This document shows positions 14,289 to 34,200 of a DNA stretch of 64,000 nt, piece by piece. How positions within the stretch are numbered: position 1 is the first letter of the stretch; every line of letters starts with the position of its first letter. Under the pieces are notes generated by a model. It was not told the origin of the DNA, did not search any database, and worked only from the letters and a program-made list of their open reading frames with translations. The position numbers and the translations under genes are program-made. This stretch comes from an uncultured bacterium (GTDB lineage: Bacteria > Patescibacteriota > Patescibacteriia > Magasanikbacterales > GWA2-37-8). Location of the stretch: the NCBI GenBank assembly GCA_937903605.1, contig CALCZC010000007.1, positions 37,982 through 101,981 of the forward strand. The letters run 5' to 3'.

Positions 14289-14395
14289 ACAAATGGTGGG
14301 CGGAAAGAGACTCGAACTCTTAAGGCCTTGCGACCGCTACCACCTCAAGGTAGTGCGTCTACCAACCTGCCTGCCGGCAGGCAGGTTTCGCCACC
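14289..14395 (-). tRNA. Atypical tRNA-Leu(GAG)-like gene / possible pseudo-tRNA
   Basis: 3' two-thirds is a good tRNA: anticodon arm CTACC TTGAGGT GGTAG, long variable arm, T-arm AAGAG TTCGAGT CTCTT, acceptor 3' TCCGCCC-A-CCA. A 20-nt perfect palindrome CCTGCCTGCCGGCAGGCAGG sits in the D-loop. No 5' acceptor strand complementary to TCCGCCC could be found. Confidence 0.35.
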
Positions 14396-14422
14396 TCTTT
14401 CTTTATTCAATGATTATAACTA

Positions 14423-14508
14423 GGTGTCCAGAAGAGGACTCGAACCTCCATGGCCTTGCGGCCGCTACCACCTCAAGGTAGTGCGTCTACCAATTTCGCC
14501 ATCTGGAC
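14423..14508 (-). tRNA. tRNA-Leu (anticodon GAG)
   Basis: Acceptor GTCCAGA/TCTGGAC, D-arm GCG AAATTGGTAGA CGC, anticodon arm CTACC TTGAGGT GGTAG, long variable arm CGGCCGCAAGGCCATG, T-arm GGAGG TTCGAGT CCTCT, discriminator A + CC. Confidence 0.8.
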
Positions 14509-17956: not shown

Positions 17957-18331
17957 TTAATTATTTTTATAATTATATTTTTTCAAACCATTTATCAATT
18001 TACTCACAACTACTGTTTGATTGGCAAATAAACTAAATTTTTCCTGATTAATATATCCAATATCTTTAACTATTAATAATTGATTCTGCAATTCAGTTAA
18101 AGATCCTAAGGCCATGCTAAAAAAATTATTTTTATCCTTAGAGGTTGACCGACTGAAACCTTCAGCTATATTAGATGTAACAGAAACAACACAACGTCTC
18201 ATTTGACTTACTAAACCAAAGATTTCCTTATCCGGAAAATTTCCAGTTTCTTTATAAATTAATAATACTAATTTATGACCTTCTTTCCAAGCATTCAAAC
18301 CTGTAAACGATTTTATTTTCTTCCCCTCCAT
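17957..18331 (-). CDS. Four-helix-bundle protein (23S rRNA intervening-sequence protein family), second copy
   Basis: LVSQMRRCVVSVTSNIAEGFSRSTSKDKNNFFSMALGSLTELQNQLL matches the family core (IAEG...F...A.GS..E). Flanked by AT-rich inverted-repeat-like sequence. Confidence 0.8.
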   Translation of the reverse strand: MEGKKIKSFTGLNAWKEGHKLVLLIYKETGNFPDKEIFGLVSQMRRCVVSVTSNIAEGFSRSTSKDKNNFFSMALGSLTELQNQLLIVKDIGYINQEKFSLFANQTVVVSKLINGLKKYNYKNN

Positions 18332-19672: not shown

Positions 19673-22324
19673 TCACAATTTTTTTAATTGTCCTTTAAGT
19701 TTATTTAATTTCTCTTGTGCTTCAACAAGTTTAGACTTCTCTTTCTCCACCACTACCACTGGAGCGTGAGCCATAAAATCCTGGTTGGCAAGTTTTGTCT
19801 GTAAAGAAACAAAATATTTTTCCGTTTCTTCAATTTCTTTTTCCAATCTGACTTTTTCTTTTTCCAAATCAACACTCCCGAGCACATCCAAAAATATTTC
19901 TACTCCTCCTTGCACAAAACCGACATAATTTTTTGGTTTTTTGGCTATCTTTTTAATAATCAATTCTTCCAATCTCCCCAGTCCTTTGATGATTTCCGAG
20001 TTCTTAGATAATAATTTCTTTTGCTGCCCGGCAGAAATAACGGCTTTGATTTTTTTGGCCGGTTCTATTTTATTATCCGCACGGGTTGCTCGAATTCCGG
20101 TGATAATATCCTTGATATTGCTAAAACTTTCAGTATTTTCTTTAATTTTCATTTTTGGCCAAGATGCAACCATCAACATTTCATTTTCTCCATAAACCTC
20201 CTGCCAAATAGTTTCTGTCACATATGGCATAAACGGATGCCATAATTTCAAGATAGTATTTAAGATATAATTCAAAATTTCAGATTTATCACCCTCAATT
20301 TTGGCGATTTCCAAATACCAATCCGCAAGTTCTCCCCAGGTAAAATCTCGCAATATTTCTCCACTAAAAGAAAAGTTATATTTTTCCAAATTATCCGTAA
20401 CTTGTGCAACTATTTTGTTCAATTCACTCAAAATCCATTTGTCCGCTATTGTTTTACCTTTTGGTTGTTTGATATCTTTTTGAGATTGCGGAATATTGAG
20501 CAACATAAATCGCGAAATATTCCAAAGCTTGTTGGTAAAATTACGAAAACCGGCAATTTTTTCCTCGGATAATTTCAAATCATTTCCCGGAGTATTTCCG
20601 AGCAAGGTAGACAAACGCGTAGCATCTGTGCCATATTTTTCAATCATGTCTAGCGGATCAATAGAGTTACCGAGTGATTTACTCATCTTACGCCCTTGTT
20701 CATCTCTGACCATACCGTGCAGATAAACTTTTTCAAATGGAATATCTCCCAAGGCGTAGGTGGTCATGAGAATCATGCGCGCTACCCAAAAGAAAATAAT
20801 GTCATAGCCTGTTTCCAAAACACTGGTCGGATGGAAATTTTTGAAATCAGCGGTTTTTTCCGGATAGCCTAAGGTGGAAAAAGTCCAAAGTCCGGAACTA
20901 AACCAGGTGTCCAGAGTGTCAGGATCTTGTGTCCAGCCTTCTTCTTTTGGTGCTTCAATGCCGACTTTGATTTTCTTTCCTTTATACCAAACAGGGATCT
21001 GGTGTCCATACCAAATCTGACGAGAAATACACCAATCGTTTAAATTTTTGATCCAATTGAAATATACTTTTTCAAAACGGTCAGGAATAATCTCTATCTG
21101 TTTTTTTTCTACAACTTTAAGCATCAATTCTTTGAGAGTTACTTCACTTCCAGGTTCTATGCCTTTTATTTTTTTGCCTTTAAATTTGAATTTTTTGTTT
21201 ACCGCCACAAACCATTGATCCGATGGCAATGGTTCAATAGGTGTTTCACAGCGATAACAAACGGATAAATTATTGGGAATATCTTTTTCTTCAATCATCA
21301 AACCCTCGGCAATCAAATTCTCAACCACTTTTTTTCTGGCTTCTTTTACGGTCAAACCCGCATATTCTTTGCCGGCCTGCGCGGTCATCTTGCCGTCTTC
21401 GTCAATAATTTTGATTATCGGCAAATCATTTTTTATTGCCATGTCGTAATCAACTTTGCTATGCGCCGGGGTAACACCAAGCGCGCCGGTACCAAAAGTC
21501 ATATCAACTGACTCATCGGCGATAATTTTTATTTTTAAATCACTGCCTTTGGCAAAACTTTTTACTTCAAAAGTTTGACCGATATATTGTTTATATCTAA
21601 CATCTCCGGGATTAACTGCGATAGCCGTGTCGCCTAGCTTGGTTTCCGGACGGGTTGTGGAAATGGCAATCGGAAAAACGGAAGAATATTTGAAAGTATA
21701 AAATTTGGCGCTTTGTTCTTTGTATTCCACTTCATCATCAGCCAAAGTACTATGACATCTCGGACACCAGTTCACAATTCTATACCCGCGATAAATCAAA
21801 TCATCGTCATACATTTTTTTAAATATGGTTTTTACCGCCAAGTTTCTTTTACTATCCAGTGTGAACGCTTCTCTGCTCCAATCTAAACTCGCGCCCATTT
21901 TTTTACTTTGGGTATTTATCGTATCATGAGATTTTTGCGCAAAATCATTTACTTCCGCCAAAAATTTTTCTCTGCCCAACTCTATTTTCGGATCTTTGAT
22001 TCCTTTTTCCATCAAGATTTTTTCTACTTTGGTTTGAGTAGCAATAGCCGCATGATCGGTTCCGGGCAACCAAAGAGTTTTTTCACCTTTCATCCGGTGA
22101 TAGCGCGTGATAGTGTCTTCTATCGCCAACATGGAAGCATGGCCCATGTGCAAAATACCGGTTACATTTGGCGGGGGCAACACCATAGAAAACGGTTTGG
22201 CATTTTTCTTACAAACGCCTTTTTGTACGCAAACATCAGGATTGAATAGACCACTATCTTCCCATTTTTTATAAATATTATCTTCAAACTGTTTTGGCTC
22301 GTAGGCCTTGTATAGTTCATGCAT
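19673..22324 (-). CDS. valS: Valine--tRNA ligase (start moved to the internal Met MHELYKAY; ORF-track start is 22411)
   Basis: PPPNVTGILHMGHA (HIGH), KMSKSLGN, editing domain, C-terminal coiled coil. 884 aa from the chosen start. Confidence 0.9.
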   Translation of the reverse strand: MHELYKAYEPKQFEDNIYKKWEDSGLFNPDVCVQKGVCKKNAKPFSMVLPPPNVTGILHMGHASMLAIEDTITRYHRMKGEKTLWLPGTDHAAIATQTKVEKILMEKGIKDPKIELGREKFLAEVNDFAQKSHDTINTQSKKMGASLDWSREAFTLDSKRNLAVKTIFKKMYDDDLIYRGYRIVNWCPRCHSTLADDEVEYKEQSAKFYTFKYSSVFPIAISTTRPETKLGDTAIAVNPGDVRYKQYIGQTFEVKSFAKGSDLKIKIIADESVDMTFGTGALGVTPAHSKVDYDMAIKNDLPIIKIIDEDGKMTAQAGKEYAGLTVKEARKKVVENLIAEGLMIEEKDIPNNLSVCYRCETPIEPLPSDQWFVAVNKKFKFKGKKIKGIEPGSEVTLKELMLKVVEKKQIEIIPDRFEKVYFNWIKNLNDWCISRQIWYGHQIPVWYKGKKIKVGIEAPKEEGWTQDPDTLDTWFSSGLWTFSTLGYPEKTADFKNFHPTSVLETGYDIIFFWVARMILMTTYALGDIPFEKVYLHGMVRDEQGRKMSKSLGNSIDPLDMIEKYGTDATRLSTLLGNTPGNDLKLSEEKIAGFRNFTNKLWNISRFMLLNIPQSQKDIKQPKGKTIADKWILSELNKIVAQVTDNLEKYNFSFSGEILRDFTWGELADWYLEIAKIEGDKSEILNYILNTILKLWHPFMPYVTETIWQEVYGENEMLMVASWPKMKIKENTESFSNIKDIITGIRATRADNKIEPAKKIKAVISAGQQKKLLSKNSEIIKGLGRLEELIIKKIAKKPKNYVGFVQGGVEIFLDVLGSVDLEKEKVRLEKEIEETEKYFVSLQTKLANQDFMAHAPVVVVEKEKSKLVEAQEKLNKLKGQLKKL

Positions 22325-22556
22325 AAAATACGAAAAATACACAAAAGATTTCCGAGTTAATATCGGAATCTCTTTTTTTGTAATTTTACAGGAAAAAAAA
22401 GAAATTTGCAAGGCAAATTTCGACTTCGGACTATAGACTACAGACTGTAATTAGACTTCAGTCAATCAGACTACGGACTACATATAGACTGGAGTCTGAA
22501 GACCGTAAATTATTGACGTTTTTTATTTAATATTAGCCAAAAAACAGCTTAGACAC

Positions 22557-22585
22557 TTGACAAAATAGTCAAAATATGCTATCAT
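22557..22585 (+). promoter_or_regulatory. Near-consensus sigma-70-type promoter (TTGACA-17-TATCAT)
   Basis: TTGACA at 22557-22562, 17-nt spacer, TATCAT at 22580-22585. Sits inside a repeat-dense 620-bp intergenic region, about 440 nt upstream of the next ORF. Confidence 0.5.
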
Positions 22586-23029
22586 ATATTGTTTAGTGCC
22601 TGGATTTTCGCTAAAATATGTTTAGACTTCGGACTACGGTCTACGGACTTCTCGGTAAGCAGAAGACTGAAGACAGTAGACTGAAGACCAATATCGCTCT
22701 TTACAATAAATGTGTGTGTTTAACCGGACTTCAGACTACAGGCTACAGACTACAAAATCTGGAGGCTGAAGACTGAAGACCGAAGACTAGTGTTAATTGG
22801 ATGAAGAGAGAAAAGTATGAAATAAGCTAGTAAGCAATAAGCTTGTAAGTCTACCTATCGGTAGACAGGCTGATAAGCTAAGAAGTTGACGAGATACAAA
22901 GCCCATGAAATAAATTTTAAAGAGGGCTGTAGTCAGAAGACTGTAGACTGAAGACCGAATTTACTTTTTTCTTTCCATCCAATTAACATATATTTTAAGC
23001 ATTACAAACAACAATACAAGGAGCGTGTC

Positions 23030-23656
23030 ATGAAGAACACCAAGAAAAACGCCTTCGCTTCCGTTTTCATCTCGTGTATCATTTTTATTACCTTTATCAC
23101 TATCACTTCATGTGGCGGTGAAGAACCGAATCTGCCTGACGACGATCAGGACAATGACGAAATCGCTGTTACCGACGATGAGCCGGTTGACAACGAACAG
23201 CCTGATGATGTAGTGGACGAAGAACCGGTTGACGATGATCAGCAGATTGATTGGTGTGGCCGTCTGGACCAGAACTATCGTCTCAGTGGTGAACCGATTT
23301 GGGAAGACCCGGAATTTCATTATGAATATCCGGTTACAATGACCAACAAAAAAGAGGGCTGTAATGTTATTTCGATGAACGAAGAACACGGCCCCTACAT
23401 TGAGTTCACTACTCAAGCTGAAAGTCTTCCGCTGGAAGGTCCTGACACCGCATATAATAACGGTTGTATCTGGTTCCTTTTCAAGCACGATCCGACTCCT
23501 TTTGGAAAAGATCAAGGACTCCTTTGGAGAAGGATTTGTCCAAAAGAACTTTTTGACAAATGGGAAGTTGAATGCCGAGAATTATCGGAAGATATTCCGG
23601 TAAAATACAAAGACGGAAATTGGTGCGCTGACTGGTGGATGGATGTCTACCGATAA
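23030..23656 (+). CDS. Acidic lipoprotein, paralog A (signal peptide + lipobox Cys, D/E-rich linker, Cys-containing C-terminal domain)
   Basis: MKNTKKNAFASVFISCIIFITFITITSCGGEEPNLPDDDQDNDEIAVTDDEPVDNEQPDDVVDEEPVDDD. Signal peptide with lipobox-like TSCGG. The N-terminal 70 aa are paralogous to the 25354 and 27619 genes. RBS AAGGAG. Confidence 0.6.
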   Translation: MKNTKKNAFASVFISCIIFITFITITSCGGEEPNLPDDDQDNDEIAVTDDEPVDNEQPDDVVDEEPVDDDQQIDWCGRLDQNYRLSGEPIWEDPEFHYEYPVTMTNKKEGCNVISMNEEHGPYIEFTTQAESLPLEGPDTAYNNGCIWFLFKHDPTPFGKDQGLLWRRICPKELFDKWEVECRELSEDIPVKYKDGNWCADWWMDVYR

Positions 23657-23671
23657 GCGTCCAAAAATTCA

Positions 23672-23708
23672 AAGAGCCAAGGCTTTCTGCCGAGGCTCTT
23701 TTTTTATT
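23672..23708 (+). terminator. Rho-independent terminator after lipoprotein A
   Basis: AGAGCCAAGGC...GAGGCTCT hairpin + TTTTTTT. Confidence 0.55.
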
Positions 23709-23761
23709 TATCCTGTGAAATTCTAAATATTTTAATATTGTAATATTTTAATATTTTATTT

Positions 23762-23931
23762 CTATTCAACTATCACACTCCCATTATATAGCACCCAGGC
23801 TTTATTTTGAGTTTGAACACAATCGTTTTGATTTACGGAAATTTCAGCATAACACCCGTTCCCCGTATAATTAGGATTCATACCTGTATCACACCTTCCA
23901 CTACACCACCCCCAATTATCCAACACCTGAA
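23762..23931 (-). pseudogene. Orphan start-less copy of the Cys-rich C-terminal module (QVLDNWGWCSGRC...NGSVIVE) found at the C-terminus of the giant protein
   Basis: 217 bp (23715-23931) are identical except for one synonymous base to 25980-26196. Reading frame gives QVLDNWGWCSGRCDTGMNPNYTGNGCYAEISVNQNDCVQTQNKAWVLYNGSVIVE* but is preceded by an in-frame TAA directly after the ATPase stop. No start or signal peptide. Confidence 0.5.
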
Positions 23932-23935
23932 AATT

Positions 23936-25141
23936 TTATATCTGCCAAGGATAAAATAAATTATTTTTATCAATCTGTTTTTCTTTATCCAAAACAACAT
24001 AATTTAAAGCGATTTGAGGATAGTTTTCCAAAAATAATTTATATTTTTCATCATTATAATTACTACTTTTTGTTTTAACTTCAAAAGCTTGTTTTTCTTC
24101 AACAATAAAGTCTACTTCTTTTTTGTCGCGTGTCCGCCAAAATTTCAAATCTTCAGTGTCATACTTATTTAACAATTGACGAAAAGCCCCATTTTCAAGT
24201 AGTTGTCCCTTATCATCACGTTCATAAAAATTATCGAAATTATTTTTGAAGAAATTACGCATACCAGAATCACCAAAATAACATTTGGGCATTTTGATTA
24301 GTTCTTTGCGTATATTTTTATAAAACGGTCGCATTAAAAAAATATGAAAACTTTTTTGCATAACCTTCAAGTATTTATCAATCGTTATTTTGGTAACTCC
24401 AAGAGTCGCAGAAAGCTCGGAAATATTTACCAGCTCCCCTACTTGCCCGCTCAATATTTTCATCAATCGGAAAAAAGTTTCCTCTTGATTTATGTCGGCT
24501 TCGTAAATATCTTTTTTGATATACGAATACGCCAAATCTTTCAAAACCTCTTGTTTCTCCGGAATACTTTTGGCCAATACTACCCGCGGATAACCCCCAT
24601 AAGTTAGATATTCCAAATATAGCGGCATTATTTTTTCTTGAAGTTGTAACGGTAATTCTTTTGATATATCTGTTTTAGACAAATCATCCTCACCTTTAAA
24701 TTTCAAAAACTCTTCAAAAGACAGAGTTAATAAATACAAAATTTTCTTTCTGCCGGCCAATGAATCTTTGAATTTTTTATCCAAATAAAAAGCAGAGGAA
24801 CCGGAAGCGATGATTTTTATTTTCCCTTTATATTCATCATAAAAATATTTCAAAAAATTAGAGGGGTCTTTTAAATATTGAATCTCATCAACAAAAAGAT
24901 AGTTCCTTTTTTCTTTATCAAAAGGAATAATATTAAATAAATTTTTCGGAGAATCATTTAAAAGACGCAAAAAATCAGGATCTTCTAAATTTAAAAAATG
25001 GCATGTATTTCCATTTTGTTTTAAATATTCAAGAGCTTGGCGCATACTGGTAGTTTTGCCAACTTGCCTGGGTCCTATGATCAACACAACTTCGTCGTTT
25101 GATAAATTTTCTTTTATATTAGCCAAAATTTTTCTTTCCAT
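23936..25141 (-). CDS. AAA+ ATPase of the AAA_14/DUF4143 family
   Basis: Walker A LIIGPRQVGKTT, Walker B YLFVDEIQ, C-terminal DUF4143-like region (YFGDSGMRN, WRTRDKKEVDFIVE). Confidence 0.75.
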   Translation of the reverse strand: MERKILANIKENLSNDEVVLIIGPRQVGKTTSMRQALEYLKQNGNTCHFLNLEDPDFLRLLNDSPKNLFNIIPFDKEKRNYLFVDEIQYLKDPSNFLKYFYDEYKGKIKIIASGSSAFYLDKKFKDSLAGRKKILYLLTLSFEEFLKFKGEDDLSKTDISKELPLQLQEKIMPLYLEYLTYGGYPRVVLAKSIPEKQEVLKDLAYSYIKKDIYEADINQEETFFRLMKILSGQVGELVNISELSATLGVTKITIDKYLKVMQKSFHIFLMRPFYKNIRKELIKMPKCYFGDSGMRNFFKNNFDNFYERDDKGQLLENGAFRQLLNKYDTEDLKFWRTRDKKEVDFIVEEKQAFEVKTKSSNYNDEKYKLFLENYPQIALNYVVLDKEKQIDKNNLFYPWQI

Positions 25142-25223
25142 ATAGTTATTTTAGATAATTTATATACTACAATATATAATATATCAGACTATTTATATTT
25201 TGTCAATATAAAAAAGATATTTT

Positions 25224-25370
25224 TCTCTTGACAATCCCTCTGTTTTATGTCAATATACGTTGTTTAGTCTCAATATCTGCGCTAAAATAAAAAATATAAA
25301 TAGCTCTTTAATAATTTTTTAATGTGTTATAAACTTTTTGCAAGGAGAGTGTCATGAAAAAGAACGCTTT
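25224..25370 (+). repeat. About 147-bp promoter/leader repeat (copy 1), identical to 27489-27635
   Basis: TCTCTTGACAATCCCTCTGTTTTATGTCAATATACGTTG...TTTTTGCAAGGAGAGTGTCATGAAAAAGAAC is shared verbatim upstream of lipoprotein genes B and C and includes a TTGACA box. Confidence 0.7.
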
Positions 25371-25851
25371 CACGGTCACGGTTGTGGCCATCGCCTTTGC
25401 CTTCATTTTCATCGCCTGTGGCGGTGAGGAACCGGAACATCCGGATGACGATCAGAACAATGACGAGATTGCTGTTACCGACGATGAGCCGGACAACGAA
25501 CAGCCCGATGATGTTATCGATGAAGAAAATCCTGATGAAGATCAAGTAGTTATCGCAAATTGCGAAAAATTACTTGACATTGTCGGAGATTGGACTAGTA
25601 TCAATATTGAAGGGTATGATATTACGGTAACAGTCACACCCAAAGAAAAAAATTGTGAAGTAGCAGTGGAATGGACCAAAGGATATTCCGGAGTACAAAA
25701 ATGGTATGGATTAGAGCTCCCCCTGACTTATTGGGAAGAGGAAGCTTATAGAAACTACACCCTGAAAAAAACCGGAGAAAATCTGGTTCGAGAAGATACT
25801 CTTAAAACTGGAGGATTTGATAATGAGTGGGTCTTCAAAAAAATTCAGTAA
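25354..25851 (+). CDS. Acidic lipoprotein, paralog B
   Basis: MKKNAFTVTVVAIAFAFIFIACGGEEPEHPDDDQNNDEIAVTDDEPDNEQPDDVIDEENPDEDQ. Lipobox FIACGG. C-terminal ~90-aa domain with 2 Cys, similar to paralog C. Confidence 0.6.
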   Translation: MKKNAFTVTVVAIAFAFIFIACGGEEPEHPDDDQNNDEIAVTDDEPDNEQPDDVIDEENPDEDQVVIANCEKLLDIVGDWTSINIEGYDITVTVTPKEKNCEVAVEWTKGYSGVQKWYGLELPLTYWEEEAYRNYTLKKTGENLVREDTLKTGGFDNEWVFKKIQ

Positions 25852-25918
25852 TTCGGATACAGGAGTCCGAATTCTGAATTTAGAGGGTAGGAAAAAAAAC
25901 ACACCCTCAAAACTTCAA

Positions 25919-25946
25919 AGCCCAGGCATTGCCTGGGCTCTTTTTT
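25919..25946 (+). terminator. Rho-independent terminator after lipoprotein B
   Basis: AGCCCAGGC ATT GCCTGGGCT + TTTTTT. Confidence 0.6.
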
Positions 25947-26026
25947 ATCCAATTTTTCTTTTCTTAATATCTTCACCCCGTGAAATTCTAAATATTTTAA
26001 TATTGTAATATTTTAATATTTTATTT

Positions 26027-26263
26027 CTATTCTACTATCACACTCCCATTATATAGCACCCAGGCTTTATTTTGAGTTTGAACACAATCGTTTTGATTTA
26101 CGGAAATTTCAGCATAACACCCGTTCCCCGTATAATTAGGATTCATACCTGTATCACACCTTCCACTACACCACCCCCAATTATCCAACACCTGAACTCG
26201 CGGGAATCTGGCGTTAATAGGACCTGAATAATAAATACTTAAATAAAATATAATATTCTTCAC
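26027..26263 (-). CDS. Orphan Cys-rich C-terminal module ORF (78 aa, no signal peptide), paralogous to the giant-protein C-terminus
   Basis: MKNIIFYLSIYYSGPINARFPRVQVLDNWGWCSGRCDTGMNPNYTGNGCYAEISVNQNDCVQTQNKAWVLYNGSVIVE. The 3' 217 bp is identical to 23715-23931. Lies directly downstream of the ATPase gene. Confidence 0.45.
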   Translation of the reverse strand: MKNIIFYLSIYYSGPINARFPRVQVLDNWGWCSGRCDTGMNPNYTGNGCYAEISVNQNDCVQTQNKAWVLYNGSVIVE

Positions 26264-26271
26264 TACAAACT

Positions 26272-27396
26272 TTAAACCAAAAACTCTAAATAATTTTCTC
26301 TATTGATCACTTTGTATTCACTCTCTGAATATGTTTTTTTCCAGTCTTTTGGTGCGTCTTTTTTAAAATTTTGCGACCATTTTATTTCAAAGGCTCGAAG
26401 CTGTCCGTCTTTATCCTCAATCAAATCTATTTCTTGTCCGGCATATGTTCGCCAAAAATAAAGATTACCATAACTTTCTTTATATTCATCTTTTTTTATT
26501 TTTTCCATTACTACAAAATTTTCAAATAATCTTCCGACATCATCTCTATCATTTAAATCATTAAATTGTGAAATTACTGCATTTCTGATACCGTTGTCTA
26601 AAAAATAATATTTAGCTTTAGTCGTAATTTCTTGGCGTAAATTGCGAGAAAAACCACCCATCCTTTTTATTACAAAACCTTTTTCCAAAATATCCAGATA
26701 TTTAGCCACCGTTTTTACATCCATTTTTATCTGCGTTGCCAATTCACTCAAAGAAACCTCATTACCAACTTGAAAAGCCAATAACTTTAACAAATTTAAA
26801 AGCTGAAAAGAGCCACGAATTTTTTCAATATTCAAAACATCTTTTAATAAATAAGAAGATACCAATTCATTGAGTATCGCAATCTTTTCTTTTTTTGTTT
26901 TTGCTAAAAATACTTCTGGATAAGAGCCAAAAATCAAAAACTCTGTAAGCTTTTCTTGTAACTCTTGTTTATTATAAACATTCAATAACTCAATTTGAGA
27001 AAAAGGATATAAAATCAAAGTTTTCTTTCTTCCGGTAAGTGGTTCCCCTATTTTTTGTTCTAAATCAAAAGAAGACGACCCTGTAACCACCACATAAATC
27101 CCTGGAATTTGGTCAACTAAAATTTTCAACGCCATACCAATGTTTGGAATATTTTGTGCTTCGTCTATGGTAATCAATTCATACCCCTCTGCATAGGCTA
27201 AAATTTTGGAAAAATCTTGAGAAGCCAGTATTTCTTGGGTTTTGATATTATCCCCAGAATCAATTTTATATTTTAATTCAGTTTTAGCCAAAAAATCGTT
27301 TAAAAGAGTTGTTTTCCCTACTCTTCTAGGCCCATAAACAACTAAAACTTTGTTTTTTTGTTTAATATTAGCCAAATTATAATATCTTGGTAACAT
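26272..27396 (-). CDS. AAA+ ATPase of the AAA_14/DUF4143 family (divergent paralog of 23936-25141)
   Basis: Walker A VVYGPRRVGKTT, Walker B LITIDEAQ, C-terminal DUF4143-like region (YFLDNGIRN, WRTYAGQEIDLIE). Confidence 0.75.
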   Translation of the reverse strand: MLPRYYNLANIKQKNKVLVVYGPRRVGKTTLLNDFLAKTELKYKIDSGDNIKTQEILASQDFSKILAYAEGYELITIDEAQNIPNIGMALKILVDQIPGIYVVVTGSSSFDLEQKIGEPLTGRKKTLILYPFSQIELLNVYNKQELQEKLTEFLIFGSYPEVFLAKTKKEKIAILNELVSSYLLKDVLNIEKIRGSFQLLNLLKLLAFQVGNEVSLSELATQIKMDVKTVAKYLDILEKGFVIKRMGGFSRNLRQEITTKAKYYFLDNGIRNAVISQFNDLNDRDDVGRLFENFVVMEKIKKDEYKESYGNLYFWRTYAGQEIDLIEDKDGQLRAFEIKWSQNFKKDAPKDWKKTYSESEYKVINRENYLEFLV

Positions 27397-27488
27397 ATAT
27401 AATCATTACTTTTTAATTAAATATAAGGATTTCTATTCCTTATATTTATTATAAAATAAAGGAATAGAAATGTCAAGAGAGAAAAATG

Positions 27489-27635
27489 TCTCTTGACAAT
27501 CCCTCTGTTTTATGTCAATATACGTTGTTTAGTCTCAATATCTGCGCTAAAATAAAAAATATAAATAGCTCTTTAATAATTTTTTAATGTGTTATAAACT
27601 TTTTGCAAGGAGAGTGTCATGAAAAAGAACATCTT
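27489..27635 (+). repeat. About 147-bp promoter/leader repeat (copy 2)
   Basis: Identical to 25224-25370. Confidence 0.7.
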
Positions 27636-28143
27636 TTCGGTCACGGTTGTAACCATTGCCTTTACCTTCATTTTCATCGCCTGTGGCGGTGAGGAACCGA
27701 ACCTTCCTGATGATGATCAAGACAACGATGAAATCGTTGTTGTCGACGATGAGCCGGACAATGAACAACCCGATGATATCGTGGACGAAGAGCCGGTTGA
27801 CGATGACCAGCTTCCGCTGGAGGAAGTTTGCAAGAATTTCCTTGACTATGCCGGAAATTGGACTATCGTTGATATGAGTTTTACCGGTGATTTCAGTGTG
27901 ACCCTCTCAGTTGAAGGAGAGGAATGCAAGATATCTGTTGTTGGCACAACGGAATTGGCATGGATTTTTGCCTGGAAAGGGAAAGAGATGCCTCTTGCAT
28001 GCGCTGAATTTGCGCCTATGACTTATTTTTTTTACCTTGTGGGGAAAAATGAAGCTGGGAGAATGATCTGGATAAAAGGTTGGGATGAAGAAAGTTGTAA
28101 AGATGCTGAAGCGGCAATGGTTATAACGCTTGAGAAAAAATAG
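27619..28143 (+). CDS. Acidic lipoprotein, paralog C
   Basis: MKKNIFSVTVVTIAFTFIFIACGGEEPNLPDDDQDNDEIVVVDDEPDNEQPDDIVDEEPVDDDQ. C-terminal domain (CKNFLDYAGNWTIVDM...ECKISVVGT) resembles paralog B (CEKLLDIVGDWTSINI...NCEVAVEWT). Confidence 0.6.
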   Translation: MKKNIFSVTVVTIAFTFIFIACGGEEPNLPDDDQDNDEIVVVDDEPDNEQPDDIVDEEPVDDDQLPLEEVCKNFLDYAGNWTIVDMSFTGDFSVTLSVEGEECKISVVGTTELAWIFAWKGKEMPLACAEFAPMTYFFYLVGKNEAGRMIWIKGWDEESCKDAEAAMVITLEKK

Positions 28144-28177
28144 CAGGAGGTAAAAATGCACACAAATACAAGCTAAA

Positions 28178-28206
28178 AGCCAGGGTAAAACCCTGGCTCT
28201 TTTTTA
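28178..28206 (+). terminator. Rho-independent terminator after lipoprotein C
   Basis: AGCCAGGG TAAAA CCCTGGCT + TTTTTTT. Confidence 0.6.
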
Positions 28207-28256
28207 TTCTTTATATCAACTTTATATACTTAATACTAAATACTTAATACTTTATA

Positions 28257-31200
28257 CTATTCTACTATTACATTTCCATTATATTCTATCCAGGGATACA
28301 TTGGAGAAGCAGGATTACCATTTTCAGGTACACAATCGCTTGCCGCACCATCTGCATAACACCCATAATTCCTTGTTCCATAAGGATTATTCGTAGTGCA
28401 TCTCCCACTACACCACCCCCAATTATCCAAAACCTGGACTCGCGGAGTACTAGTACTTGGAGTACTGGTATAAGTAAAGTGAAATTCGTATGGCGTGTTT
28501 TTGCAACCAGTACCATCTGTACCGCTCTTATTTCCAAAACTTCCCGGATCATTGTCTCCTTCTACAAAAGTAACACAGCGAGATGTTTGAACTGTCATCT
28601 TACCTCCAGCTTTCTTTTTTGCATCATAAAATACACAGTCTTCAGCTTTGTTACAAGGAATTTGATATTGATAGTTTGCTGGTTCATATTCACACCATCC
28701 AACGTGAGTACAAAGCGGTTTGCGGTTAGCAATACTGCGAGCTTCCAAAACTATTGCGGGGTCTTCGGTTTTTGTTTGATACATTATCCGACGTACCGGC
28801 ATTTGTGCCGGGTCAGCCCAAGCATAAAATTCCAGAGCCACATCGGAATTAGGACTTACGGTACAATTACCACCACTTAACAATTCATCACTACAATTTG
28901 ACTTATTAACCACTACTGTATTTAAAGCAAATGTTTTACAATCAGGTTTTCCACCTGCGGCTTTATAAGCCTCGCAATCCGCAGATCCGGGAGATAGTTG
29001 TATAGGCGCAGCAATCACTGGTGGTTTGATATTAACGTCACAACTCGAAGCCCTTTCAGGACTGGCACAATCTATTGGGGATTTAAAAGTTAATTTGGTT
29101 GGCTCCTTGAATTCATTTACCGAGCTGGTTGGGAAGACCCTGACAAACATATTTTTTAACATTTCCCCATATTTAAGGTCTTCTAAACTATAAATTCCAA
29201 ATCTAGGAAAACTAATTTCTGTTTCTATGTCATTTCTATTTTCATAAGAAATCAAGGGACTACGTACACGTTCACGTTCATCCAAATAAAAACCAAATTC
29301 ATTTGTTTTTCCCCCATAATATGTAGTCAAGAAAGGATTTGTCAAATCGGGAAAGGTAAAGTAGCCTGTCATATCCAACTTCGGTTCCTTGATGCCCTGA
29401 AAATAAGATCTATTTAAAGTATACGAATTGGTAGCAAAACGAGTGCTAGCCGTTTCATCTTTTGGAATATTGTAAACCGTATATGTTTGATCAGGATATA
29501 GCGTATCACCCATATTGGTTTTTCCTTTGATTAATCTCCAAGTAACTGGTTTGGCGTCAATGGCAATTTCAGCTGCTTGGGCACTTGCCCCTGGAGGACG
29601 ACTATTTTTTGAAACTTTGGCAAACTCTGTACAAGAACCATCAGAAAAATGTATGACAAAGAAAAAATTAATACCTGCTGTATGACCAGCATTATCATGT
29701 AAATCCAGTTGCGCACCGAGTAATTGATCATCGCTCCCCCAAATAATCCTTGCACCAAAACCATCAAAATCGGTTTCATATGAATTAGCTTCAAATTTTG
29801 TAGGACTTGTCGGCAAACCAAAAGTATCTTCTGTTTCGCTATAAAAAAACATTTTTTTCTTGTCCTTTGATTCAAAATAATCATACTCCTCACCTTCTCC
29901 TTTATTAGCCATAACCTTAACTTCCCAAATAGTTTTTCCATCCTTCTTGTAAGTACTTTTTCTTATTAATTGTTCTCTGTTATTACCATCTTTTAGCGGT
30001 ACTCCGAGTTTAGATTGCTTAATACAAACATCTTCCAAATCGTTTTCGCAATCATAACTTTTTTTATCGGTCGAATTTTTTTCTTTGGGCGAACAATCTA
30101 CTCCCTCTGTCAAATAACAACCGGTAATCTCTTTATTTTCAAAAGTAATAATGTTGTTGTTGAAAAATTGTTCTGTTGCTATTGGATTATCTGTACCATT
30201 CGCGACTATCCAGCCGGGAGACTCTCCTATACCAAAAAAATTAACCACGCCCTTTTTCTTCAATTCTTGGTAAGTTTTCCCCAAAACTAAATCTATTTTG
30301 ACCACATCTGTTTTCTTGATTTTTCCATTATTGTAAAAAGACGGTTCTGTAGCAGGAGTAAAAACACCAGTGAGTCTATCTTGAAATTCGCTGACTTTAT
30401 TATTATCAAGACTTAATGGACAATATACTCGAGTGTTATCTTTTTTTAGACTTTCAATAACTCCTTGTCTTAGAACAGGAAAAACCTTATTATCCATATC
30501 ATTGAAACATTTCAGTATATGAGCATTCGGTGGTAAATTATAAACCATGGCCGAAGAAACGTAGTTATGGTATGTAATCGTCTGAGAAGCTTGAACCATC
30601 CAATCAACTACCACACCTAGAGCTGCCACCCAACCGAATATAGAACTTACCGAAGCTGCAACAGCTGCCGCAATAGAGGCTGCAACCGCTCCGCCTATGG
30701 CTCCCGCTATACCTGTAATAAGGGCTGTCGTTCCAGCTACCATGCCAAAAGTTAAGGGGAACGAGCCACCATCAACCCAAGCAACACCTACGGCCGCATA
30801 TTTTTCCTCGTTGTTTATTGCTAATGCAGCATCTGTCATTTCTTGTGTTGAAGTAGAAAAACAAACATATTCTTCATCAATCTCATCTACGAGATATACT
30901 TCGCCAATCTTTCCTCCTGGTGTAGTTGTACAATACCCAGCATCACTCATTTGTTGAGTACATTTCAATGTATCCACTTGCATGTATGGCTTTGTACATC
31001 CTCCCCTAGTTAAATAAGCTGTTTCACACACACATCCTTTTTCCCATACCACCTGTTTGCTTGTAAAAAACTTATCACTTTTTACCATATTTATAGAAAA
31101 AGCATTGGCACCAGCTCCACCCAGATCAACGCAATTATCATTATCACCACCTAGATCACAATATTTGAAAACATCCACAGTGGTTGTCCTGCTTTCAACT

Positions 31201-34200
31201 TCTACATTTTTGGCATTATCGATCTCTCCTGCGCTAACAGGGTTACCTGCGTTAAAATAAAATTCTAAATTTGGCAAGGGTTTCAATTTTAACGGCTGAT
31301 TGGCAATACACATATATCTATCCTTGGTATCATTTCCTTCATAAGCGGCTTTTTTATCAATTATCCAAATATCCGGCGCACCAGGAGGAACCTCCACCGG
31401 CCACCAAGTCAAACAAGGATTTTGTTCTGGTTCCCCATAAAGCTTATACTTGGGATTTTTTTCTACACAATAACCTTGCCAACCTCTAACCTCGTTTACA
31501 CTTTTTTTATTAGCGCAAATTCCTCCTCCACATTGTTCGCTATTAACACACGGTGTTCCTTCGGTTTCAAGCGAACCGCCAATACAAATACTTTGGGATT
31601 CCCTTTCTGTCCCTAAAGGAAAATAAACAAACTGGTTATTATATTCTACTTTTTTATAACTACAATCACAGGAATCCTCTTTATTTACAGTGGTACAAAT
31701 TTCTAAAGCCTTATTTTTAACAAGATATGCGTAAGCACTCCTAGAAACAGGTGTCACTCCTTCGATTGTTTCAATAATACCCCATGGATCAAATGGACTG
31801 TTTTCTTCCGGATAACCACGACAAGAAAGTTCACCGGAAGTCCTGAGTTTGCCACGATTTCTTATCATATTATTTTCTATTCCACCGGTAATAGGATATA
31901 TACACTCTCCACCTAAACACAAACCTTCTTTATTTAAACCACAAGACTTTGTCATGGTATTATCAAACTTGTTACATTCCTGAACATTTCCTTGACCAGG
32001 GACAAAAATATTTCCACTATTTTCCCAATGGACCAAGCGCGGTTCAAAATAAACACCTTCTTCTCCACTACTTTGCACCAAATTACCCACATTATATGGT
32101 TCAACATCGTTCATACGAATATACCTTACTCCCAAAGACGGAATCTGATAAGAATTGTGTAAAGTATAACCACTTAATTCCGGATCTGCCCAATTAACAC
32201 CTCTGCTTCTATAATTACTGGTGGTTATTTTTGAATTTCTCCAAGCCCAGCTATCCAAAGTAACATTTTGATCGCAATTTCCTTCTGAAAACATACCTGG
32301 GAGAGATTTACTACACAAACCAAAGCTATAGCATCTGGCTTTATCATCTTCTACTTGATAATTGTTACAATACATCCAAAGATTGCATTCGCGATCACGG
32401 GCAACTTTTACCAAAATATTGGCGTCTCTAGTCTCTGTTTCTACCGGTGGCACCGGAGCTCCTTTGACCGCGTTGGAAGCCTCATAAGTAGCTTCTGTGT
32501 TATATTTTTTATTTGGATTATTTACTTGATCAAGTAATACACAACCATAATTCACACTCGCGCCATTGGGACATTCTTCGTTTATTTTTTCACTCAATTT
32601 CCCATTATCAATGAGATAGTAAGAATTGGCAGCCGGAATACAAGTATCCCCTTGTTGAGAGCTGCAATCTTTATCGTATTCACATTTCATCCCTGATATG
32701 CTGCATTTTTTAACCGAAACATCGTTATGATCGTCAAATCTAGAACAACCATCTTGAGAAGAAGGGCACTCGCCTACATAGCCTCTGTAGCTTGTCGTAT
32801 TACCAAACGGTGGCAAAGAAATGCCAAGACCGGTAGCACAAACCTGTGTTTCATCATCTTTTAACACCCATTTACCGATTTTGGAATTACCAACGGTTTC
32901 CTCTTTATAAACACAAACTTTTTTACCAATGTTTTCCGGATCTTTAAAATAATAATTTCCTGAACCGGAACGCCAAACATCACACCCTTCAGCTTCTTTG
33001 GTACAGAGAATTCCACGATTATTACTACCTGACGATTCATAGCGAGTAGGATCGTTGATAATATAGGCATCTTCAAAAACGTATGTATTGGTGACATTTT
33101 TATATCCTTTACCCATCAAAGTACAGCCAACATTGTCTTTGTTACAAAAATTATTTACATTATCATTTTTTCTAATTGTCAAATAAATAGGCGAACTTGT
33201 TGGAGAAGTCTGTTTATAAACCAAAACCGTTGAAGTGGTAAACGCAGCACCGGTTAAAGAGCTTTGTCCGATACCGGAAGCATTTACATAACAACCGCCT
33301 TCGCCATCGGGCACAATACAATCATAATTTATACCGTTGATTTGAATAGTTGGTTTATTGCCAACCTCCGGTTTTTGTAAACCTAGATTAAATATCTGCC
33401 AAGTGGTGCTGGCGATATTACTACCTTTATTGTAAGTATCAACCAAACGAGTACAACCAATAGCCCCATCTCTGCAAAGATAACTGAAATTGTGTAAATA
33501 AATATTATCTTTACTAAGCGGAGATTTGTAAGCACGACAACCCAAGGCAGAACCTGGGAGGTTATCTTTTTGATCAAGATCGCATGATGCAGGAACCGAA
33601 AGTTTATCTTTTACCAGATAAACTGTGTCGTCTATACTTTTTAACGAAACATTATCCAAGAAGATAACTCCTCCAGCTCTATTATAATCTAAAAATATTA
33701 TATGAGCCCCTTCACCAGATGGCACACTCCCGCTAATAGCGGGATTACTTATTACGAATTCATAACGACGCCAATTGTCTGTCAAATTAACAGTTCCAAC
33801 ATTGTAGGTAAAGCCATTACCCAAAGTGATATCCCATCTTTTTGTACCTTTGGCTAAGAAAGAAAGTGAATAAACTCCGGTATTTTTTATATCCGTATTA
33901 TAATGTCTAAAACCTCGAGTAGCAGTACCGCTATTTGCCGCCACTGTAACTTTCAAAGATTTACCAAAATTGGATAACGTTTCTTCTGACAAAGAGATGG
34001 TAGTACCATTGTCAGCACTTTCGCTTGTCTTCCACCAGCCCCTTTTTGTATTGGAAACCATATTAGTCAAACCGATACCAGAGTCAAAACTATATGTAGG
34101 GAAAATATCTCTTATATTATTACCAGTGTTACCTTGATATTTGCGACATGATACTTTGTCTTGAGAACAAATTTTACTTTCAGCCCCACCAGCAACCACA

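Follow-up and report, generated by a model that had tools for sequence, protein, structure and literature searches.

Near-identical truncated tails of a giant secreted-protein gene in a lipoprotein and ATPase gene array of an uncultured Magasanikbacterales bacterium

The repeat pair and the giant-gene tail

The stretch of DNA analyzed here (the window) comprises 64,000 nucleotides of contig CALCZC010000007.1 (GenBank assembly GCA_937903605.1, positions 37,982 to 101,981), from an uncultured member of the Magasanikbacterales, within the Patescibacteria or candidate phyla radiation (CPR). It holds three units, each made of a tail, a convergent lipoprotein gene, and an AAA_14/DUF4143 ATPase gene, where the tail is either the 3' end of a gene for a giant secreted protein or an orphan copy of that end. 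The order along the minus strand is giant gene with tail3, lipo3, ATPase2, tail2, lipo2, ATPase1, tail1, lipo1, and the valyl-tRNA synthetase gene (ValRS), with the three lipoprotein genes lying on the plus strand and converging with their tails (Table 1). The two orphan tails (tail1 and tail2, or copies 1 and 2) form a nearly perfect repeat, which a sequence-only reading of the window had described as two stretches of 217 bp with a single synonymous mismatch.

The self-comparison recommended in that reading, carried out by BLASTN over 22400-28600, recovered 23712-23931 versus 25977-26196 as a match of 220 nt with 2 mismatches (E = 3e-110). Base-by-base comparison placed the mismatches at 23714 (T/C) and 23768 (A/T), and the 217-nt span proposed earlier (23715-23931 and 25980-26196) does contain exactly one A/T difference. 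On the minus strand, this difference changes GTT to GTA (both Val) within ...SVIVE and the stop codon, and is synonymous as claimed. The longest exact core shared by the copies has 163 nt (23769-23931). At the high-coordinate edge, identity ends as sharply as had been described, at ...CAACACCTGAA (23931/26196), and every base is different from 23932/26197 onwards, while on the low-coordinate side mismatches are frequent below 23712. Read on the minus strand, each repeat consists of QVLDNWGWCSGRC...YNGSVIVE and a stop codon, followed by 47 nt of 3' untranslated region (UTR), so that the description of the repeats as the 3' coding part of a module plus its 3' UTR holds. The translated product common to both copies is QVLDNWGWCSGRCDTGMNPNYTGNGCYAEISVNQNDCVQTQNKAWVLYNGSVIVE, ending at the stop.

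A third and diverged copy of the tail makes up the last ~63 codons of the giant gene (28257-28445), whose protein ends in ...PRVQVLDNWGWCSGRCTTNNPYGTRNYGCYADGAASDCVPENGNPASPMYPWIEYNGNVIVE and stop. The conserved box at the start of the tail is seen there for the third time in the window, at 28411-28433 (-), the sole other match within it, with none expected by chance. In the alignment of the three copies, the 5' box is conserved, the middle is variable, the end is again conserved (YNG[NS]VIVE and stop), and the 3' UTRs are related. Each tail combines a VQVLDNWGWCxGxC box with ~35 aa of variable, Cys-containing sequence, a final strand that is again conserved, and a portion of the 3' UTR; the variable part extends over ~35-40 aa and has 4 Cys. 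Within the 47-nt box, tail2 and the giant gene have 4 differences, all of them synonymous, and the longest exact stretch between orphan and expressed tails is 26 nt. Box, end, and 3' UTR being shared by all three copies, both repeats represent the 3' end of the giant gene (its last ~55 codons), truncated on the 5' side and lacking a promoter of their own.

The two orphans differ in what lies upstream of the box. In copy 1, a frame runs from a GTG at 23926 to the TAG at 23762-23764, encoding VLDNWGWCSGRC...YNGSVIVE, and the 5' edge directly adjoins the ATPase1 stop. In copy 2, homology to the giant gene extends through CCGCGAG (PRV) to ~26203, beyond which the sequence up to the ATPase2 stop is degenerate and AT-enriched; its open frame (26027-26263) has 78 codons and a GTG start. 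It had also been claimed that an in-frame TAA next to the ATPase stop prevents copy 1 from being translated from its own start. It is reasonable that this copy lacks a start context for its own translation, but the TAA, which is two codons ahead of QVLDNWGWC and shares the frame of the tail, is the stop codon of ATPase1 itself. This TAA (23936-23938) reads YPWQI*NFQVLDNWGWC, and read-through would give an ATPase-tail fusion; since ATPase2 and tail2 are in different frames, the match of frames is probably due to chance.

The giant protein had no match in Pfam or NCBIfam, and neither did the 58-aa tail queried alone in NCBIfam. A structure model of the C-terminal 197 aa shows a beta domain with weak Ig/PKD-like matches. 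A toxin domain was discarded for the tail, which is too short and has no domain match. We found eight clear homologues of the giant protein, all from CPR bacteria or metagenome contigs and one with the source name Candidatus Magasanikbacteria. In seven of them, VQV[LK]DNWGWC or a closely related sequence precedes a variable tail at the end of the protein, the eighth being cut by the contig end; a ninth match was weak and has the related motif DNWEFC. In a scan of one genome per species, the box appeared at at least 118 loci, typically 30-80 codons upstream of the stop of a long open reading frame (ORF). Most of these loci are labelled Patescibacteria, Magasanik-, Falkow-, Buchanan-, or Parcubacteria, and many further ones "uncultured Gammaproteobacteria," which we take as mislabelling.

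Some relatives (related loci and contigs carry L numbers in what follows) show other features at or near the giant gene. In two more distant homologues (L003 and L004), it adjoins a PrgI and TraC-like (type IV secretion-like) cluster instead of ValRS, a neighborhood that hints at the machinery with which the giant protein may work. In L046 (CAYMID010000001.1, 4823-5004), from an unrelated genome bin, a run of N directly follows the DNWGWC box, and a second copy of the box lies beyond the gap. The assembler evidently had difficulty with this tail, which is what variation of tails within that population would be expected to cause.

Table 1 Features of the array and of its surroundings in the window
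Feature	Position	Strand	Remarks
ValRS	19673-22411	-	Last of the array order
lipo1	23030-23656	+	208 aa; convergent with tail copy 1
Hairpin and T-run	23674-23706		Between lipo1 and tail copy 1
Orphan tail copy 1	23712-23931	-	54 codons and ~47 nt of 3' UTR
2265-bp unit	23932-26196		ATPase1, lipo2, and one repeat; bracketed by the repeats
ATPase1	23936-25141	-	401 aa; AAA_14 and DUF4143 (Pfam); PADLOC PDC-S01, E = 3.6e-93
lipo2	25354-25851	+	165 aa; convergent with tail copy 2
Diverged homologous hairpin	25919-25939		Between lipo2 and tail2
Orphan tail copy 2	25977-26270	-	Near-identical tract at 25977-26196
ATPase2	26272-27396	-	374 aa; AAA_14 and DUF4143 (Pfam); PADLOC PDC-S01, E = 7.7e-141
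lipo3	27619-28143	+	174 aa; convergent with the giant gene's own tail
Diverged homologous hairpin	28175-28201		Between lipo3 and the giant-gene tail
Giant secreted protein gene	28257-37187	-	2976 aa; signal peptide; Cys-rich; expression site

Lipoprotein and ATPase genes and related loci

The three lipoproteins have a nearly identical signal peptide, lipobox, and acidic linker, followed by diverged C-terminal domains that are ~20% identical; that of lipo2 belongs to the type found in L005, L081, and L131. None of the three gave anything significant in Pfam or NCBIfam. The hairpins located between each lipoprotein gene and its tail (Table 1) are read as shared bidirectional terminators of the convergent pairs. 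As for transcription from the other side, ATPase1 has a promoter-like site (25178-25206) and ATPase2 a perfect -35/-10 consensus (27448-27476), and no terminator was found between either ATPase and its orphan tail; each ATPase mRNA would therefore probably carry the orphan tail as its 3' UTR. No known RNA family was detected in 22000-29000 at E<=0.1.

The matches to the PDC-S01 profiles extend over the whole of both ATPases, and by this criterion the two are members of PDC-S01, a candidate single-gene defence system. Their mutual identity is 32% at the protein level, near the ~30% estimated in the sequence-only reading. A sequence search of the PDB with ATPase2 gave no match. DUF4143 has been assigned to the PD-(D/E)XK nuclease superfamily (PMC3424549). 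PMC12988326 describes PDC-S01 as common and its defence function as unvalidated, experimental validation being pending for most such candidates.

Several smaller features accompany these genes. The region between the ATPase2 start and its promoter (27393-27473) is a near-palindrome with 37-nt arms that are 76% complementary, and it is conserved in L114. Short heptamer arrays (GACTACG, GAAGACT, and GACTACA) are found at 22420-22990, together with an inverted repeat of 27 nt (22791-22817/22962-22988, 89% complementary). Arrays and inverted repeat constitute an extra block of ~370 nt between a lipoprotein-type promoter block (22557-22618) and the lipo1 ATG, a block that lipo2 and lipo3 do not have; in L205, lipoprotein genes are preceded by sequences like the promoter-side part (22521-22722). 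The two strongest repeat families of the region, 23712 to 25977 and 25224 to 27489, have the same offset of 2265 nt and cover different segments, which we treat as a coincidence because the ATPase genes differ by 81 nt in length. Farther away, a gene of the 23S_rRNA_IVP family (a four-helix bundle protein) is located at 17957-18331, and a pair of short repeats with 90% similarity lies at 14305-14493, near a small GIY-YIG gene downstream of the tRNA-synthetase cluster.

The sequence-only reading had raised the question of whether relatives carry the cassette in a different copy number or position, and they do. Two close relatives, L002 and L005, have the giant gene, one convergent lipoprotein gene (~190 aa), and then ValRS and the tyrosyl-tRNA synthetase gene, without ATPase or orphan tail. 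In L001, which has the closest giant homologue (59%), the next gene is 93% identical to lipo1, and there the contig ends. L205 carries an array of an AbiEi/AbiEii pair, an orphan of 201 aa, and a lipoprotein gene, then an ATPase, an orphan of 178 aa, and a lipoprotein gene, and then an orphan of 170 aa with its lipoprotein gene. Housekeeping genes of L131 (ValRS to the arginyl-tRNA synthetase gene) match the window at 86% identity over 7.8 kb, and the array of L131 ends before ValRS with a third type of ATPase, a different orphan tail, and a lipoprotein of the lipo2 type. Orthologues of ATPase1 (90% aa identity) and ATPase2 (88%) in L134 and L135 are each followed by other tails. The ATPase2 of L114 retains ~93% DNA identity from ~100 nt upstream to the stop codon, with both flanks unrelated and a longer and different giant-gene fragment after it. 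In L113, L125, and L136, the position of the ATPase is occupied by AbiE or toxin-antitoxin ORFs, those of L136 being read by eye as HicAB and MNT/HEPN pairs. A perfect tandem duplication of 1229 bp comprising a tail and a lipoprotein gene was present in L199, and further examples of the unit in L132, L127, L128, and L164.

Among 25 orphan-like tails, 24 keep an open frame over ~53 codons together with the canonical ending, which is missing in the orphan of L182; stop codons have a frequency of 4.9% per codon in the three plus-strand frames of the window. Given these intact frames and the fully synonymous box differences, the orphans seem to be either maintained or of recent origin. Tail classes that are expressed in one genome also occur as orphans in another. 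The points of 5' truncation vary (5, 38, ~60-100, or ~130-190 codons upstream of the DNWGWC box). Many orphans in L131, L132, L134, L135, and L136 start at a ...DPxGFGNxxGxGC[KR]... segment ~45 aa before the box, and this common starting point is found after ATPases or toxin-antitoxin genes of different types, which suggests that it may be a preferred point of crossover or insertion.

Tails and lipoproteins go together. Over all fetched loci, a convergent lipoprotein-like ORF was located downstream of 93 of 162 tail ORFs versus 7 of 241 control ORFs. Within the close clade, the variable part of the tail correlates with the C-terminal domain of the adjacent lipoprotein (Mantel test, r = 0.32, p = 0.009), and the correlation rises to r = 0.59 (p = 0.0002) when the tail1/lipo1 pair of the window, an outlier, is omitted. 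Lipo1-type genes in L001 and L127 adjoin tails of the NGYxYGCY...WIEY class, and tails like tail1 and tail2 adjoin lipo2-type genes in L081, L126, and L132. Tail type co-varies with lipoprotein type, copy 1 of the window being the exception.

Origin of the near-identity and role of the array

In copy 1, lipo1 stands beside a tail of a class that elsewhere accompanies lipo2-type genes, and lipo1-type genes pair with another class; for this reason we consider that copy 1 was overwritten. Near-identity would then derive from recent gene conversion from copy 2 to copy 1, which we regard as fairly well supported by the sequence comparisons. The converted tract, of ~220 bp, would begin with the box and end 47 nt after the stop codon, with tail2 copied over the tail originally beside lipo1 inside an old array. 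Beyond the tract, copy 1 regains orthology with the lipo1 flank of L001. Recent conversion or copy-paste of the module alone, as first proposed from the sequence, is supported and agrees with the age of the units around it, in which ATPases (32%), lipoprotein C-terminal domains (~20%), and hairpins have all diverged. L134 and L135, both from one sample, likewise share a nearly identical patch between their two orphan fragments. At the lipo1-side contig end of L215 (ERZ724086 NODE_37907), there appears to be the copy-2 base (T) at 23768 together with the copy-1 base at 23714, a mixture by which the boundary of the tract may differ between samples.

Sister assemblies gave a further view of the repeat. 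The window lies within NODE_28 of the European Nucleotide Archive (ENA) assembly ERZ724087 (301 kb, coverage 14.8), and the tandem gene order is found in six long contigs (0.05-1 Mb) of separate assemblies, one of them shown and five listed as similar places. Low-coverage sister assemblies stop at the repeat (L214 at 23769, L215 at ~23767, and L216 at 23744). Two contigs join its flanks in another way. L218 (ERZ724083, 7150 nt) contains the giant gene, lipo3, ATPase2, the core, the left part of copy 1, and lipo1, without the 2265-bp unit, and L210 (ERZ724086, 2233 nt) contains lipo2, the left part of copy 2, the core, and ATPase1, that is, the permuted unit, as in a circle or a tandem copy; k-mer coverage was 4.9 for L210 versus 3.5 for the lipo1 contig of the same sample. 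These contigs could be the reciprocal products of one crossover in the 163-nt core or result from an alternative pairing of the repeat exits by the assembler. An exact core of 163 nt is long enough for RecA-type homologous recombination, by which the 2265-bp segment with ATPase1 and lipo2 could be looped out, lost, or amplified, and we infer from the sister assemblies that the unit is gained and lost in this manner.

The reading that we favor, with a probability of about 0.6, joins these elements: spare tails of the giant gene, a recent conversion of tail1 by tail2, a recombining core, and an array acting as a store of alternative tail/lipoprotein pairs, in which each orphan tail would have its own lipoprotein gene. 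Recombination at the conserved box, in one strain or between different ones, would swap stored pairs with the pair at the expression site, and defence-type genes (PDC-S01 ATPases here, AbiE and toxin-antitoxin genes elsewhere) would ride in the gaps between units. The weakest step is that of a reservoir for tail switching, which the arrangement of the genes may suggest. Several points weigh against this step or against the favored reading as a whole. Neither contigs nor reads joining the giant gene to the tail1/2 variant were found, and a metagenome scan for the tail2-specific peptide NPNYTGNGCYAE gave zero hits. With tail1 equal to tail2, the window offers a single alternative tail, a poor reservoir, and exchange with the expression site would be rare given that the longest exact stretch in the box is so short. 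The correlation of tails and lipoproteins could reflect physical linkage alone. Single-crossover insertion would also leave identical flanking repeats without gene conversion, and the low-coverage L218 and L210 could stem from an assembler pairing a repeat node with two entries and two exits differently.

Concerning the identity of the repeats, an unlikely alternative is a single-crossover (Campbell-type) or homology-guided insertion of a segment with tail, lipo2, and ATPase1 into a strain that had ATPase2, a tail, and lipo1, so that identity would date from the insertion instead of from conversion between paralogues. The repeats do bracket exactly one 2265-bp unit, the unit-less arrangement exists in L218 and a circular or tandem junction in L210, copy 1 adjoins the ATPase1 stop and is homologous no further upstream than the box, and ATPase orthologues beside different orphan tails in L114 and L134 imply that units reassort. 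However, the insertion requires a unit-less ancestor with a tail of the tail2 class beside lipo1, which breaks the pairing seen elsewhere, and a 2.27-kb circle has no gene for replication or integration; the L218 junction has the copy-1 variants at 23714 and 23768, as a deletion would leave, and fits an ancestral state equally well. Assemblers can traverse simple loops by default, and the tandem could have been produced by threading ATPase1 and lipo2, from another molecule or strain, as a loop into a true chromosome of the order lipo1, repeat, and ATPase2. Contigs with exactly the alternative pairing (L218 and L210) exist, and the Logan contig L220 is unbroken from ATPase2 through the core. 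Yet the copies differ at 2 of 220 positions, which excludes one graph node walked twice, the six long contigs agree on the tandem order, relatives such as L205 and L131 have contiguous multi-unit arrays without identical repeats, and an element of 2.27 kb that lacks replication functions would not be maintained at a coverage like that of a chromosome. By the two differing positions, the long contigs, and the arrays of relatives, a pure assembly artefact is unlikely, and we give the threaded loop very little credence.

With regard to the role of the array, the strongest competitor, less probable than the store but to be taken seriously, is that orphan tails are inert by-products without use, persisting as young copies or refreshed by gene conversion, while the 3' region of the giant gene, or the space between tandem duplicates of tail and lipoprotein gene, would be a recurrent landing site of defence and toxin-antitoxin genes. 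The varying truncation points, the decay of copy 2 upstream of the box, the lost ending in L182, the orphans' lack of a start context of their own, and the fresh perfect duplication in L199, by which simple duplication does occur, all speak for inert copies. They sit less easily with the 24 of 25 tails that are intact over ~53 codons in AT-rich DNA, the exclusively synonymous differences in the box, the full-length lipoprotein gene with its own promoter region retained by each orphan, and the presence of the same tail classes in expressed and orphan positions of different genomes. A bolder version of the store, which we find rather improbable, is programmed tail swapping in CPR of the Magasanikbacteria group, in which silent tail cassettes and matched lipoproteins would be recombined into the expression site and the PD-(D/E)XK ATPases, acting like a homing nuclease and not as mere passengers, would help to start or spread the exchange; the changed Cys-bounded loop would contact the lipoprotein partner, the host cell, or phage. 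CPR bacteria are known for diversity-generating retroelements, and a variable region at the C-terminus of a large CPR surface protein recalls them, the repeat taking the place of the template repeat and the giant-gene tail that of the variable repeat. However, orphan and expressed tails differ at all four bases instead of at adenines, with indels included, no reverse transcriptase was found among the ORFs scanned at 16-55 kb, and both orphans are coding copies with their own stop codon. The mismatches at all bases and the missing reverse transcriptase rule this candidate out, and we assign it a negligible chance. Integron-like or integrase-driven insertion was also rejected, with no recombinase among the ORFs at 16-55 kb and junction positions that differ between loci.

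CPR bacteria are thought to live attached to other cells and, to our knowledge, variation of their surface proteins beyond diversity-generating retroelements is largely unknown. A literature search for "DNWGWC" found no paper, and one on cassette or hypervariable surface genes in CPR bacteria found nothing describing this locus or such arrays; in the literature searched, a recurrent cassette array of truncated giant-gene tails, matched lipoproteins, and interleaved candidate defence genes has not been described before. Four features meet at this locus. The giant secreted proteins form a conserved family that ends with a VQVLDNWGWC box and then a variable disulfide tail; the lipoprotein gene that converges on the tail varies along with it; truncated tails and additional lipoprotein genes stand as spares in arrays; and candidate defence genes lie between the units. 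If the spare copies are used, this would be a recombination-based system of surface variation in a major uncultured lineage, and tail and lipoprotein provide a concrete pair for binding tests. Even if they are not, the locus is a defined hot spot of defence-gene accumulation and a natural case of a 163-nt repeat that would govern the gain and loss of a PDC-S01 gene.

Comparison with known systems

The ATPases can be compared with PDC-S01 (AAA_14 ATPase and DUF4143 PD-(D/E)XK), of which both are full-length profile matches, each with its own promoter. This comparison covers the passenger genes only and not the repeats, and the passages of PMC12988326 consulted do not mention PDC-S01 genes placed consistently just upstream of a truncated surface-protein tail.

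The layout resembles that of the orphan C-terminal modules at loci of contact-dependent growth inhibition (CDI; cdiA-CT/cdiI), Rhs, and MafB. As in those, a tandem array lies downstream of a very large secreted-protein gene, the unit pairs a 5'-truncated C-terminal fragment, whose start is close to a conserved motif, with a small and variable partner gene that changes together with the C-terminus, and accessory and mobile genes are interspersed. However, the variable part is here only ~35-40 aa long and has no toxin-domain match, the partner gene converges on the tail, encodes a lipoprotein, and has its own promoter, instead of being a co-oriented cytoplasmic immunity gene, and the motif is VQVLDNWGWC in place of VENN or PxxxxDPxGL.

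The silent-cassette systems (pilE/pilS of Neisseria, the MgPa repeats of Mycoplasma genitalium, and vlsE/vls of Borrelia) have one full-length expressed gene with promoter-less, 5'-truncated copies nearby, as does the window, with the giant gene (28257-37187) and the orphans at 23762-23926 and 26027-26263, which are promoter-less and without start context. In both, conserved segments bracket a variable one (here, the 47-nt box and the YNGxVIVE end), and there are signs of concerted evolution between copies; a variable Cys-bounded loop at the C-terminus of a surface protein recalls the C-terminal disulfide loop of pilin. The differences are that the window has just two silent copies, identical in translation, each with its own convergent lipoprotein gene and with defence-type genes between them, and that the host is an environmental CPR bacterium, not an animal pathogen. 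With no toxin domain, with a convergently encoded lipoprotein as the partner, and with a transfer into the expression site that we only infer, the locus is a member of neither the CDI-type nor the silent-cassette systems; by analogy, it would work most like the latter.

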